A DNA stretch of 64,000 nucleotides from NCBI GenBank assembly GCA_051294905.1, contig CM119371.1, positions 32,242,001 through 32,306,000 on the forward strand, written 5' to 3'. The notes under the pieces were generated by a model. It was not told where the DNA came from. It saw nothing but the letters and a program-made list of their open reading frames with translations, and made no database searches. Position 1 is the stretch's first letter. Each line of letters opens with the position of its first letter. The position numbers were made by a program, and so were the translations under genes. Of the stretch, positions 42,935 through 58,275 are shown piece after piece. This DNA is from Botryllus schlosseri. Lineage: Eukaryota.

Positions 42935-43574
42935 AGTAGTATAGTACATCGGTCGCGAATCGCCATAGGGTTCTTATGGGTGCGGCGGTGATGCGCCTGG
43001 AAACTCGTGGTGGTGATGCGCCTTTTTAGACCCCCCTCTCGGCGGTGATGCGCCATGTGTTCTTATGGATGCGGTCGTGATTCGCACTTTTGGGTATAGG
43101 GTGTGGTCGTGATTCGCCGTGAAAACTCGTGGTCGTGACTCGCCTTTTTTGCTATAGGCGGTGGCGGTGATTCGCCTGTCGTGTATTCTTACGGGTTCTG
43201 TGGTGATTTACCATGCATTCTTACGGGCGTGGCGGTGATTCGCACTTTCAGGCATCTCTCGCGTGGTGTTGAATATGCACGAGTCACCAACAATAACCGC
43301 ACAACGGAAACGTGGCTTGTTGTGAGGATTAAGCAGTGCGACCTATATTTCGAATGACCTGCGCGCTGAATTGTTTCCGTGCAGCCGCTACTATCGATTA
43401 TTACACTAGACCGGTCAGTGTGAAATAGTTTGATCGTAAATTATGATATATGATGTAGTTTAGTCGTGTCAAATGACCGATCGTGTTCCTCGCTATTGAT
43501 TGCCACCTGAATAATACTTTCGGCTTATTCGCTGTTTCGCACCTATAGAATAGTCTGCTGTTCACAGTCGCAAC
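42935..43574. repeat. Maverick left TIR (640 bp)
   Basis: Reverse complement of 57636-58275; one mismatch seen (43135 vs 58075). Confidence 0.98.
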
Positions 43575-43610
43575 AAGAATCACAAGTATACACATTTACA
43601 CATTCGTTTA

Positions 43611-44054
43611 TTACTCTGAAATCAAACTCTTCACAAAAGCACGTACAATCGTATCATTCACTTTTTTATCATCGCCAAAATTATCCAAGTATTCCTCGGT
43701 TGAAAACCCTTGAGCTCTTTTTATCAAGAATGCGATAGCATGATCTCCACACACATCCGAAGTTCTACTCTGTAACTGTTTCCCAGTCACGGAAAATTCA
43801 TCCGGCTCCAGGAATTCGATTATCTGAGGTTTTAGTGGCCCGAAACCTAGCGAATCATGAAAATGAGTATCGTCATCTCCGTATATAGACACCCAGTGAG
43901 ACCCAGGCAAACTCGACTCGTCGTAATTAATGATGATAGCGAATTTTCCGCTAATTGGTTTCTTCGGTAACTGGTCTACTGGATAAGTCCCTAGATATAG
44001 ACTTTGTGTGTCAGGATGGTTATAGAGAATATCATTGATCTCAGACGTATTCAT
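43611..44054 (-). CDS. Adenain-like cysteine (maturation) protease, Maverick PRO
   Basis: GSHWV (His), HDSLG (Asp), QSRTSDVCG (Gln/Cys). Likely start MNTSEI at 44054 overlaps the MCP stop (ATGA); AATAAA overlaps its own stop. Confidence 0.92.
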   Translation of the reverse strand: MNTSEINDILYNHPDTQSLYLGTYPVDQLPKKPISGKFAIIINYDESSLPGSHWVSIYGDDDTHFHDSLGFGPLKPQIIEFLEPDEFSVTGKQLQSRTSDVCGDHAIAFLIKRAQGFSTEEYLDNFGDDKKVNDTIVRAFVKSLISE

Positions 44055-45322
44055 ATTTCGACGACTTGTCTTTTTTGATTCAACTGTAGAAGATGTTGAA
44101 ACTCCTTCAAACATAACAAGGTTACGGAGGTTGGTAAAGGCTTCGACGTAGTCAAAACCAGATGCACAGTTCCTGTCTTATGAAGTTGATAACATCCCAA
44201 ACTATTATCGGGTGTCAAATCAAACACAAAAAGAGTGTATCCATTGACATAATCTTTGCGTGAAATATTTAAAGGTGCCTCGGATTCCCAGCGACCTGTC
44301 TGAGAGAATAGTGCCATATATCCTTCGAGTCCGCCATGTTTATCAAAATCGAAATGAAATTCGCGTCCGTTAATTTGACGCCCATCCACACTTAACGAAA
44401 GATTTTGAACATCAAAGTGTTTAAAGTTGAATGGGTTTTTGGTCCGAACACCGTTAAATGTCGTGGTCTCAACTAAACCAATTACGATCTTCTTTGGCAT
44501 GGTGCCGCTAACTAACTCTCTATCAATTTTCGACAACCCCGCCGCGAATGTATGAGTCGACATTTGTAAGCGTATCCAGGGATACTTTGCAGTATTCTTC
44601 TGTAATACAGACTTGTGTGCCAAGCTTACACTTTCAGCGATCTTCATCTGTTTGACATACACCTCCATTTCGAGTAAAACAATTTGTACATCTTCCGCAT
44701 CACCAAGCAGACAGAAATTATCTTCGTTACGTGTAAATTTTAATTTCATGTCGACATTATCCAACATACATCTAGACTGTTCAAAAAGACCCATTCGAAT
44801 TTTTCCGATCAACTCTAACGGAGTGCTGTTTTTTGTAAGGTCTTTTCGTTTAACATATCCAGTATTCGCTGCACCAAGAACATCCATAGATCCAGCGACA
44901 TCTTTATAAAAACCTTGTCCTTGCACAAAACTCTCCGAGGCACCATGTGTATCATTCAACAACCGAGAGATATAAGCTTTGTACGCATGACAATTATCCG
45001 AATTTGTGATAACCTCATTTGAAATAGTTACATCGATTTGTTTGAAAAGAGAATCCAACATGTTATTGACCAGACCCACTTGTGTATCGTTTGCTAAATC
45101 AGTTCCATCGCGTTTAGTGAGCTTCAAACGTAATCTCAAGAACGTGTTTTGTAGATCCATATATCGATCCGTCCTTGGTAATTGTACTTCCATGACATTA
45201 CCTAAACTATGGGGTTTGACGACGACATATTGCGATTCCTCAATACTGGTTTGTGTGTGGGGTATACTAAATATGTTTAATCCCGAGTTATGACATTCTC
45301 TGGAACCCGCGTGCATCAACAT
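44051..45322 (-). CDS. Double jelly-roll major capsid protein (Polinton PY)
   Basis: 423 aa; LNIFSIPHTQTSIE, SLFKQIDV, YKAYI, PKKIVIGLV, NPFNFKHF, GYTLFVFDLTPD match Polinton MCP. Confidence 0.92.
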   Translation of the reverse strand: MLMHAGSRECHNSGLNIFSIPHTQTSIEESQYVVVKPHSLGNVMEVQLPRTDRYMDLQNTFLRLRLKLTKRDGTDLANDTQVGLVNNMLDSLFKQIDVTISNEVITNSDNCHAYKAYISRLLNDTHGASESFVQGQGFYKDVAGSMDVLGAANTGYVKRKDLTKNSTPLELIGKIRMGLFEQSRCMLDNVDMKLKFTRNEDNFCLLGDAEDVQIVLLEMEVYVKQMKIAESVSLAHKSVLQKNTAKYPWIRLQMSTHTFAAGLSKIDRELVSGTMPKKIVIGLVETTTFNGVRTKNPFNFKHFDVQNLSLSVDGRQINGREFHFDFDKHGGLEGYMALFSQTGRWESEAPLNISRKDYVNGYTLFVFDLTPDNSLGCYQLHKTGTVHLVLTTSKPLPTSVTLLCLKEFQHLLQLNQKRQVVEI

Positions 45323-45327
45323 AGTTC

Positions 45328-56382: not shown

Positions 56383-56736
56383 ATGGCAACTAGCGCGATT
56401 ATTGAGAATTATCTTCTCTATTATCATAACTTGACAACCCCCACATTGAGCGAAACGGAAAAATTCATCCACGGAGTACTAGATTTCTATGTACATGGAG
56501 AAAACGTGAGCCGTGTTCGAAAGTGCGATTTTACCGCATTGGTTAACTCGATTCGATCATACGGTATCGACTGGAATGGGGTTTTTAGTGTCATAAGCAT
56601 TGCGGCGATGAAAAGTGACATAAGCACCCTAGCGGCGTACAGAGATTTAACAACAGACATCTTGAATACTCACTACAGTACATTGATAAGTGACTGGGTA
56701 AGAAGAAAATTCATTCGTGTCGTTTGTCACTTGTAA
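56383..56736 (+). CDS. Putative viral Bcl-2-like protein, 117 aa
   Basis: BH4-like SAIIENYLLYY, BH1-like GIDWNGVFSVISIA, BH2-like ISDWVRR in the expected order and spacing. Confidence 0.6.
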   Translation: MATSAIIENYLLYYHNLTTPTLSETEKFIHGVLDFYVHGENVSRVRKCDFTALVNSIRSYGIDWNGVFSVISIAAMKSDISTLAAYRDLTTDILNTHYSTLISDWVRRKFIRVVCHL

Positions 56737-56856
56737 CCGGTATCCTTTCTTACAGAACTCCTGTAAATTTTATTTCAATCCAAGTCTATTCGCGCGGGTC
56801 ATCAGGATTATACAAAGACTGTTAACTCACTCAATACCACGCACCTAATTCTATAA

Positions 56857-57510
56857 ATGTCGGCGGGTTTGCTGATGACTCTCACTTTACCAAACGATAT
56901 GGCATCGAACAGCGTCAACACTATGCGAGTCGGAGCAACTTCAAATTTTCACGTCGGCGTCAAATTCGTCTCATCACCCAAAAGAGGTGGCGTTAGCCAA
57001 TATCTCAAAGGTATATTCATCGACGGCAATAACGAAGAGATATCTTTCACGTGTTTCAATCGTGATTTGTTCGGGGTCATTGAGAAAGCATTCGCCAAAC
57101 GAAAAAAACTCATGGTCAAATCCGGTTGGGTCCAAATTGACAAGTTTACTGGAAAACCTGCTGTATTACTGGGACGGGCTTCGTCAGTAACTCTGCATGG
57201 AAAATCGAGACATACGACTGAAGAATACCCATTATTGACCTGTGAATCGGTATATGGAAATAAAGATGAATACGTCTCGATCGCCGCTACTTGTGTTTCT
57301 CGAGAGGAGAAGACGGTCAATTCTGGTGCCGGAAAGGAGTTGAAATTATACAGTTTTACATTGAAGGATGATACTGGTGAGGTGGTTTTGGATCAATGGA
57401 ACAAAGCCTCGCTCGTACCCGGGAAGAAATATCAACTCACTCGTGTTAAAAACTGTGTCGGCAGCTTGAAAATCGATTCGTTAACTAGACTTGTTGAATT
57501 GAAAGAATAG
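56857..57510 (+). CDS. Tandem OB-fold (RPA/SSB-like) ssDNA-binding protein
   Basis: OB1 LKGIFIDGNNEEISFTCFN; OB2 VSIAATCV...KLYSFTLKDDTGEVVLDQWN...PGKKYQL. True start may be the ATG at 56899. Confidence 0.75.
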   Translation: MSAGLLMTLTLPNDMASNSVNTMRVGATSNFHVGVKFVSSPKRGGVSQYLKGIFIDGNNEEISFTCFNRDLFGVIEKAFAKRKKLMVKSGWVQIDKFTGKPAVLLGRASSVTLHGKSRHTTEEYPLLTCESVYGNKDEYVSIAATCVSREEKTVNSGAGKELKLYSFTLKDDTGEVVLDQWNKASLVPGKKYQLTRVKNCVGSLKIDSLTRLVELKE

Positions 57511-57635
57511 TTTGCATATTTGTATACCGCAATACAATATTTCACGTAAAATGTATGACCTATGTGTTTCGACAACTGGGTTAGAGCGGTGTTGTTCTAC
57601 TGATCGAGGTGTGAAAATTGTGCTATCGCGATGAA

Positions 57636-58275
57636 GTTGCGACTGTGAACAGCAGACTATTCTATAGGTGCGAAACAGCGAATAAGCCGAAAGTATTATT
57701 CAGGTGGCAATCAATAGCGAGGAACACGATCGGTCATTTGACACGACTAAACTACATCATATATCATAATTTACGATCAAACTATTTCACACTGACCGGT
57801 CTAGTGTAATAATCGATAGTAGCGGCTGCACGGAAACAATTCAGCGCGCAGGTCATTCGAAATATAGGTCGCACTGCTTAATCCTCACAACAAGCCACGT
57901 TTCCGTTGTGCGGTTATTGTTGGTGACTCGTGCATATTCAACACCACGCGAGAGATGCCTGAAAGTGCGAATCACCGCCACGCCCGTAAGAATGCATGGT
58001 AAATCACCACAGAACCCGTAAGAATACACGACAGGCGAATCACCGCCACCGCCTATAGCAAAAAAGGCGAGTCATGACCACGAGTTTTCACGGCGAATCA
58101 CGACCACACCCTATACCCAAAAGTGCGAATCACGACCGCATCCATAAGAACACATGGCGCATCACCGCCGAGAGGGGGGTCTAAAAAGGCGCATCACCAC
58201 CACGAGTTTCCAGGCGCATCACCGCCGCACCCATAAGAACCCTATGGCGATTCGCGACCGATGTACTATACTACT
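57636..58275. repeat. Maverick right TIR (640 bp)
   Basis: Reverse complement of 42935-43574. Confidence 0.98.

Follow-up and report, generated by a model that had tools for sequence, protein, structure and literature searches.

How does a Maverick persist and spread when its own DNA polymerase appears to be dead? Mavericks (Polintons) are defined by self-synthesis, and their polymerase is the marker gene by which they are found and classified. We addressed this question for one element of Botryllus schlosseri, which lies in a window of 64,000 nucleotides (nt), that is, the whole stretch of DNA that was analysed (contig CM119371.1, positions 32,242,001 to 32,306,000, of the eukaryotic assembly GCA_051294905.1, 495.5 Mb in 219 contigs). 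The element, an adintovirus-like Maverick/Polinton whose virion module is open, occupies positions 42935-58275 of the window (15,341 bp). The reading that we prefer, with a probability of about one half, is that of a helper-dependent Maverick. Elements with the dead polymerase cassette would be copied in trans by live sisters, and the dead protein would be kept for a non-catalytic job.

The polymerase gene is an open reading frame (ORF) of 1201 amino acids (aa) on the minus strand (50858-54463). Polinton protein-primed family B polymerases (pPolBs) have the architecture terminal protein (TP)-vOTU-exonuclease (Exo)-polymerase (Pol), and the domain names used here follow the available part of the source that describes it (PMC11161782). 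The ORF is homologous to outside pPolBs (E = 3.5e-194), with a best identity of 38% to proteins of marine invertebrates. We aligned it with the 40 best outside animal homologues. At Exo I, the D found in all 40 homologues is S in the window; at Exo III, the Y of all 40 is C; at motif A, the D of all 40 is T. The first and second G of motif B, both present in 40/40 homologues, are A and D, respectively, and motif C, which reads DTDS in all 35 homologues aligned there, reads DINS. Moreover, the KxY motif is deleted, while Exo II is retained. The thumb (last 72 residues) is also gone, and alignment to a live sister attributes the loss to a deletion of ~207 nt; 31 of the 40 homologues have at least 70 residues in the missing region. 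The Pfam model DNA_pol_B_2 recognised a live sister (33.8 bits, cut-off 25.8), whereas two dead copies gave no match at E <= 1. The original prediction, made from the letters of the window, had held that the pPolB lacks its catalytic residues, and the alignment agrees with it. Judging from these motifs, the polymerase of the window element is probably catalytically dead. An intron, or a mis-called 3' end with a decayed thumb beyond the stop codon, was also considered and is ruled out by the ~207-nt deletion relative to the live sister; the similarity downstream of the stop codon belongs to a separate, decayed gene of 198 aa.

The protein could still be a polymerase with an altered active site, or one that serves for initiation only. 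Motif A reads T-S-D in the dead form and D-S-N in the live form, so that an acidic residue is found two positions later, on what, by our own structural reasoning, would be the same face of the strand, and the first Asp of motif C is kept. Motif conservation within the dead clade is strong, and the available part of a report on inactivated protein-primed DNA polymerase (pDNAP) domains keeps the same caveat (PMC5499653). However, seven features of the enzyme are hit together (Exo I, Exo III, motifs A, B and C, the deleted KxY and the deleted thumb), the affected positions are invariant in the aligned outside animal homologues (35-40 of 40), and the Pfam polymerase model fails to recognise the protein. 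We consider residual polymerase activity very improbable.

The N-terminal part of the protein (residues 1-330; 53474-54463, minus strand) comprises the presumed terminal-protein region, a vOTU-like domain and a C2H2 zinc finger, the last with a Pfam E-value of 0.001, which is below the cut-off. The catalytic Cys of the vOTU (DNLCAFRC) is present in 34/34 and the catalytic His (HFCLI) in 39/39 aligned homologues, and both are retained in the window. The dead exonuclease and polymerase part (residues 331-1201; 50858-53473, minus strand) has kept a Vsr-like insert, resembling very-short-patch-repair endonucleases, between motifs A and B (51824-52246, minus strand, residues ~740-880). The D, H, C and WEC positions of this insert are invariant or nearly so in the 40 homologues, and the source records of some homologues bear the name G:T-mismatch repair endonuclease. 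The dead form retains most of the insert, including these positions, with R in place of an invariant G.

Is the dead polymerase a private defect of this copy? We searched the genome with the protein and scored 39 of the 380 first-look candidates. Among them, 20 were of the dead type (88-100% aa identity to the window, with the same end point) and 19 of the live type (77-81% aa identity, frames of 1295-1300 codons); 17 of the 19 live-type copies had no stop codon and two had one. Eight further dead-type and eight live-type copies were then compared in sequence with the window. The altered motifs are common to all nine dead-type copies aligned, window included, and the truncated end to eight of the nine, the exception being L025, which ends even earlier. 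All eight live-type copies have the thumb and all canonical motifs, except that L028 has V for the first Asp of motif C. A 27-nt motif-C pattern (at most 2 mismatches) was found at 38 dead-type and 41 live-type places in the genome, and the reversed control patterns at none; D-I-N is retained at all 38 dead-type places. Thus, about half of the polymerase copies of the family are of the dead version. In a tree rooted with five outside sequences, the dead copies were monophyletic (support 1.0), with a stem of 0.25 substitutions per site; the stem of the live clade measured 0.033. The dead version is one old clade and a lineage-wide state, and co-resident Mavericks with a canonical PolB do exist beside it.

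Several further observations concern the copies of this family. In a subgroup of dead-type copies (L024, L026, L035 and L036), about 75 N-terminal, presumed terminal-protein residues are absent, and the frame is open over ~1131 codons. Three further copies, on contigs C13, C6 and C10, are nearly equal in search score, which hints at a recent spread. Several pairs of terminal inverted repeats (TIRs) 13.3-14.1 kb apart enclose no match, with up to 2 mismatches allowed, to the motif-C pattern of either type (for example C9:2530119-2543982, C17:2192578-2206224 and C16:13004976-13019034). A third variant of the polymerase may be encoded there, or these pairs may mark elements shortened by deletion. 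Of the 31-mers sampled from the dead cassette, fractions of 0.37 and 0.32 were also present in X7 and X15, two runs that are labelled as other organisms, and near-identical dead-type sequence may thus be present in other species.

The gene next to the polymerase has had a different history. Two frames lie between the polymerase gene and the ATPase gene of live elements, namely an open gene of 198 aa and an ORF of 75 aa (in L039, a live element on contig C9, at 8586-9182 and 8266-8493, respectively, minus strand); neither has a Pfam match. In the window, only a remnant of the 198-aa gene is left (50549-50857, minus strand), after a deletion of ~640 bp. A 30-nt unit is repeated 2.2 times at 50762-50828, directly downstream of the polymerase stop codon. 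Among the dead-type loci, the gene is reduced to remnants of its first 18-72 codons (49-78% identity), with stops in 5/9.

We estimated omega, the ratio of non-synonymous to synonymous divergence (dN/dS), for the exonuclease and polymerase part of the gene. With the Nei-Gojobori method over all pairs, omega was 0.21 for dead copies (36 pairs) and 0.07 for live copies (28 pairs). The truncated copy L025 was kept in this set and was excluded from the disjoint-pair, tree and maximum likelihood (ML) sets. For disjoint near-sister pairs, the ratio of the proportions of non-synonymous and synonymous differences (pN/pS) was 0.22 (dead, four pairs) and 0.08 (live, three pairs). Of the 420 changes counted in the four dead pairs, 228 were synonymous and 192 were non-synonymous (binomial p = 2e-51), a synonymous share of 54% against 21-30% expected; the upper expectation is our own estimate for kappa ~3.7. 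An ML codon model (GY+F3X4, 874 codons) gave omega = 0.30 for the dead clade (kappa 3.7) and 0.10 for the live clade, and omega = 1 was rejected for the dead clade (2ΔlnL = 185.6). The dead exonuclease and polymerase domains are thus under purifying selection, with a constraint about three times weaker than in the live form. The decay of the adjacent 198-aa gene in the same loci is an internal control for this selection. The dead polymerase gene is not a relic.

How are dead and live elements related outside the polymerase? The window element was compared over its whole length with eight others, six live and two dead. The closest of the eight was a live element, V4, with 99.0% identity over 42984-50549. 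The identity of the two elements was 98-100% over 54004-54503, which holds the first 150 polymerase codons, but only 69-91% in 100-nt windows across 50629-54003, and little could be aligned at 50549-50628. The differing polymerase cassette thus spans 3.45 kb. The other proteins of V4 are 97-100% identical to those of the window (99-100% for all except the protease-like ORF), and the backbone of the window is nearer to V4 than to the dead elements D1 (95.7%) or D3 (96.4%). N-terminal polymerase variants are common to both cassette types. Between cassettes, dS is 0.8-1.0, while the backbones differ by ~1-4%. Such old cassettes on young backbones indicate that the dead and live forms are old alternatives that move between backbones by recombination. 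In short, judging from these alignments, recombination exchanges dead and live polymerases inside a single family whose termini are the same. The original prediction of a separate lineage or system did not survive this comparison: what differs is the polymerase cassette, of which two alternatives recombine into a common backbone.

The ends of the element are well defined. The left TIR (42935-43574, plus strand) begins AGTAGTATAG, a terminus common to live and dead sisters, and the right TIR (57636-58275, minus strand) is its perfect inverted copy. The arms are 640 nt each and 100% complementary, with 0 mismatches; a repeat-finder reported 644 nt, of which 4 nt are target-site duplication (TSD). 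The TSD reads AACGCT on the left (42929-42934) and on the right (58276-58281). Nearly identical TIRs and a perfect TSD had been predicted, and the arms in fact match fully over 640 nt. Six sister elements also have 6-bp TSDs, and both ends with such TSDs were seen in 7/9 elements compared; five of these are live, and the other two, D1 and the window, are dead. The terminal start AGTAGTATA is found in six of these seven elements and AGTAGTT in one.

The reiterated triplet AGTAGTA opens the termini in the window (42935-42945) and at the ends of six sister elements. In adenovirus, protein-primed initiation involves a jumping-back mechanism. By analogy, we infer that the reiteration would permit sliding or jumping back in the protein-primed initiation of these Mavericks. 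The TIRs also contain an internal repeat (43039-43097 and 43197-43255, spacing ~158 nt). A dispersed repeat, for which 160 first-look candidates were counted in the genome, forms the left flank (42535-42828) and stops 106 nt before the insertion. A reverse-transcriptase-like ORF of 329 aa (41960-42949) appears to enter the element; its frame begins by chance within the TIR, and the retrotransposon homology of the flank terminates at 42828.

The TIR arms also bear on the age of the insertion. The window has 0 mismatches in 640 nt, against 3-22 in 548-851 nt for seven of the eight other elements; for the remaining one, V3, the arm pair was not found. The window copy is the youngest of the nine elements compared, and the element is as young as had been supposed.

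How could a dead-type element be so young? Copies of this Maverick (Polinton, adintovirus-like) family have one or the other of two polymerase cassettes. In the live one, a canonical protein-primed family B polymerase is encoded together with two small downstream genes. The protein of the dead cassette retains the presumed terminal-protein region, the vOTU cysteine protease and the zinc finger, and would be unable to copy DNA. In the mechanism that we favour, elements with the dead cassette would still produce an integrase, a capsid, a packaging ATPase and a priming protein of their own, and their replication would be carried out in trans by polymerase from co-resident live elements with the same AGTAGTA... 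termini. Selection would keep the dead protein, most likely for supplying the terminal protein and for binding the origins or the live polymerase; its own vOTU may release the terminal protein. The presence of co-resident live elements with the same termini, together with the shared dead motifs, makes the helper idea reasonable. A satellite that borrows the polymerase of a helper had been proposed before. The borrowing is in accord with the live co-resident elements and their termini, but the dead elements are not a separate lineage, and this part of the proposal has to be given up.

Mobility may instead be independent of any Maverick polymerase. The integrase would then move the DNA, host replication would copy it, and the frame would be kept for another job; the vOTU might, for instance, counter host defences as a deubiquitinase, or the protein might have a role in the virion or a terminal one. 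The integrase and the 6-bp TSDs are intact, and the vOTU Cys and His are retained. Furthermore, the available parts of two reports describe mobile polintons without polB in butterflies (10.1101/2025.02.07.637071) and defective Mavericks at hundreds of copies in axolotl and tuatara (PMC8097293). However, selection acts on the exonuclease and polymerase part itself (omega 0.30 over 874 codons) and not just on the N-terminus, and the live cassettes with their omega of 0.10 indicate that the family has need of its polymerase. End-copying by protein priming would also fit the AGTAGT reiteration and the identity of the TIR arms. We regard mobility of this kind as quite unlikely.

Truncated transposase forms are repressors of some DNA transposons. 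Similarly, the dead protein might be a selected brake, that is, a dominant-negative form or repressor that ties up origins, terminal protein or live polymerase and so reduces replication of the family; elements with the dead protein would then persist, since a milder burden is to the advantage of both the host and these elements. Purifying selection on a non-catalytic protein, the near-equal numbers of dead and live places (38 and 41), the recombination of both forms within one family, and the long dead stem (0.25 vs 0.033), which fits a change of function, are all in accord with a brake. However, dead-type elements still multiply, given that none of the nine is younger than the window copy, and a brake leaves their copying unexplained. 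It is compatible with replication in trans rather than an alternative to it, and its effect on live elements would be hypothetical. Such a brake seems rather doubtful to us.

A broader form of the helper-dependent reading, to which we give a fairly low probability, is offered tentatively. Dead and live elements would form a two-component viral system under frequency-dependent selection, in which live elements supply the polymerase and dead elements are specialised cheaters or partners whose polymerase has turned into an adaptor for terminal protein and origin. Such a system would be an intermediate towards the split of TP and polymerase in adenovirus, and recombination on a shared, young backbone would maintain the two old cassettes (dS ~0.8-1.0) together.

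We also looked for transcripts of the dead cassette. Dead-type sequence was found at 95-99% identity in contigs of three other samples. In the contig set X17, which is only guessed to be RNA, depth was 5-26 over 49888-53555 and 0 over the stretch from capsid to integrase, which is not as expected of DNA. From raw single-cell RNA reads, of which ~3% of the run was read, the greatest depth within the element was 40 at 57224-57747, the 3' end of a 217-aa gene. The 3' end of the capsid and protease genes had a depth of 8-22, the ATPase gene 7.7, and the 3' part of the dead gene 0.8-2.7. Because these RNA sequences are at least 95% but not 100% alike, they come from dead-type copies generally and not from this copy in particular. 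Dead-type copies are thus transcribed at a low level.

Some results weigh against the helper-dependent reading, and part of them would suit a simpler view, in which the dead copies are fossils of an old inactivation, the selection signal comes from choosing open copies, and the identical ends come from conversion or assembly. Stop codons (1-3) occur in 11/20 dead-type copies, against 2/19 of the live type, and only 9/20 dead-type copies are stop-free. All copies used for omega were selected for long open, stop-free frames. Moreover, 330 nt of downstream non-coding DNA differ by 0.080 among dead copies, less than the Nei-Gojobori dS of 0.158, so this dS is probably inflated; scaled to the non-coding flank, dN/neutral is ~0.4. 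The cassette of the window has no near-identical sibling among the eight other dead copies compared, the nearest of which differs by 3.8% in nt. Identical TIR arms could also stem from gene conversion. The RNA evidence is shallow, with one of the two runs only guessed to be RNA. Finally, the catalytic death is read from motifs, and replication in trans, like the role of the dead protein, is something that we infer.

Nevertheless, a choice of stop-free frames cannot alone give 54% synonymous among 420 changes, and the adjacent 198-aa gene has decayed in the very copies whose polymerase frame is kept. A 99% identical backbone around a cassette that is ~20% different needs recent recombination and insertion, and dead-type sequence is present in the three other samples as well. 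Fossils combined with artefact are, in our opinion, highly unlikely.

The remaining genes would provide what a dependent element contributes itself. The element has 12 ORFs on the minus strand and two on the plus strand, and most of them matched nothing in Pfam. The integrase (356 aa; 47843-48913, minus strand) has a C-terminal chromodomain and matches Pfam rve (E = 2.8e-16, 60 bits, cut-off 32.6) and Chromo (E = 2.2e-9). The capsid protein (423 aa; 44051-45322, minus strand) has 107 homologues, some named F54H12.2-like. Its AlphaFold model, built with 45 homologues as alignment, has a predicted local distance difference test score (pLDDT) of 92.6 and a double jelly-roll fold. Foldseek matched this model to the capsid proteins of iridovirus, PBCV-1, Sputnik and mavirus (E = 4e-16 to 2e-11), with probability 1.00 to those of virophage, PBCV-1 and iridovirus. 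The frames of integrase and major capsid protein are thus open, in line with the prediction.

The packaging-type ATPase and the protease are less clear. In the ATPase (203 aa; 49622-50233, minus strand), a Walker A-like GPSRSGKT and a Walker B-like LIIVDD are readable in the translation, in agreement with the motifs predicted for it, but its Pfam scores are below threshold (AAA_14, 3e-5, 24.5 bits vs 27; Pox_A32, 4.9e-3, 16.8 vs 22.8). A protease with a complete triad had also been claimed. The candidate, which would be adenain-like (167 aa; 43611-44114, minus strand), was recognised by its position and by H, D, Q and C residues read by eye, and it has no Pfam match at E <= 10, so the triad is not upheld. 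The ORF is 94-98% identical in the seven of eight sister elements compared that retain it.

Other ORFs of the minus strand have less distinct features. One of 123 aa (45328-45699) has a basic C-terminus in its translation and no Pfam match. Three tandem paralogous ORFs of 131, 223 and 276 aa (45696-47586), which overlap by 4 nt each, have a common C-terminal LLRV...YFP motif, and none matches a Pfam family above the cut-off; they may represent a multiplied minor capsid protein and are candidates for the single jelly-roll penton protein. Two small ORFs of 131 and 115 aa (48849-49588) have no Pfam match either; they are 91-100% identical in sister elements, the 115-aa ORF being aligned over only 60 residues in one. 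An ORF of 293 aa (55038-55919), known from its translation, lies upstream of the polymerase gene and is likewise without a Pfam match.

The two plus-strand ORFs had been predicted to form a module of a tandem OB-fold protein and a Bcl-2-like protein. Bcl2 homologues are indeed reported in adintoviruses, in the available part of the source (PMC8502044). However, the 117-aa ORF (56383-56736) had no relatives outside its own genome in a search of 5.8 billion proteins, no Pfam match at E <= 10 and no sequence match in PDB. Its model is all-helical and of low confidence (pLDDT 50.7), and fold searches gave nothing significant: the top VIA hits were generic helical repeats (Z 6.5), and Foldseek gave Mcl-1 at E = 2-3.3 with a probability of at most 0.06. 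The Bcl-2-like label is therefore left without support. A glycosyl-hydrolase lead for the same protein (Atlas, 0.90, low recognition) was judged implausible.

The 217-aa ORF (56857-57510) is possibly an OB-fold or RPA-like protein. Its language-model features matched OB-fold/RPA-like clusters in Atlas at 0.93-0.95, including REPA_OB_2 and tRNA_anti-codon, and a 96%-identical relative matches tRNA_anti-codon at E = 0.099. Pfam and PDB, the latter also with a profile, gave no match, a full HMMER scan gave no support, and phmmer against 1.84 billion representatives gave four matches, one of them a repeat protein and probably spurious. The OB assignment can be kept as a lead, but the tandem OB protein was not recovered by Pfam, PDB or HMMER. 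Both genes are 99-100% identical in the live element V4, so they belong to the family and not to the dead form.

If the helper-dependent reading is right, this family would be a concrete case of helper and dependent forms, a kind of social structure, in an endogenous double-stranded DNA virus. It would also be a natural experiment on the non-catalytic parts of a protein-primed polymerase, namely the terminal protein, the vOTU and the binding of origin or partner, and it bears on the possible origin of adenovirus-like split priming systems. Censuses of 'intact ORFs' can count replication-dead elements as active.

Mavericks with long TIRs, 6-bp TSDs, an rve integrase with chromodomain, a packaging ATPase, a double jelly-roll capsid protein and a protease-like ORF are canonical, and the window element is like them in these features, with a putative packaging ATPase; the TP-vOTU-Exo-Pol layout of its polymerase gene is also that described in the available part of PMC11161782. 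It differs from them in that its polymerase is without catalytic motifs and thumb, yet selected, and in that the two small genes beside the polymerase are lost. In full-text searches, with subscription-only papers and supplements outside our scope, we did not find a full-length, motif-dead and selected polymerase allele that recombines with a live allele in one animal Maverick family. Nevertheless, to call the element a candidate new system, as the original prediction did, is too strong. Inactivated pPolBs (PMC5499653), mobile polintons without polB (10.1101/2025.02.07.637071) and adintovirus Bcl2 homologues (PMC8502044) are all in print, as far as the available parts of these sources go.

The available text of PMC5499653 describes inactivated pPolBs fused to a superfamily 1 (SF1) helicase in polinton-like viruses, Tlr1 and transpovirons. 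As in the window, a protein-primed polymerase domain of a Polinton-centred class was kept after the loss of its motifs. In contrast to the fusions described there, the window element has no helicase or other replacement replication enzyme and has kept the exonuclease domain and the integrase, and its dead form co-circulates and recombines with a live form in one animal family.

In Pieris butterflies, mobile polinton-related structural variants lack polB (bioRxiv 10.1101/2025.02.07.637071). They resemble the window element in having recent insertions without a working polymerase; however, in the part of the preprint available, polB is absent or replaced by retrotransposon cargo, whereas the window has a full-length, open and selected frame. 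Amplified defective Mavericks of axolotl, tuatara and pike (PMC8097293) are similar in that many copies are without a working polymerase. The polymerase genes in the available part of that report are broken by stops and frameshifts, whereas 9/20 dead-type copies of the window family are stop-free and omega is 0.30.

A parallel for a division of labour comes from adenovirus, in which TP and polymerase are separate proteins, and from a Stylophora polinton with a separate TP gene (both from the available part of PMC11161782). There, as in the mechanism proposed here, the priming protein and the polymerase come from different polypeptides. Adenovirus has lost the catalysis of the vOTU and kept the domain structurally, according to the same part of the source, and the window likewise keeps a domain without its catalysis. 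The difference is that the window has inactivated the polymerase domains and kept the vOTU Cys and His, and that its split would be between two elements, not between two genes of one genome as in the systems described there.

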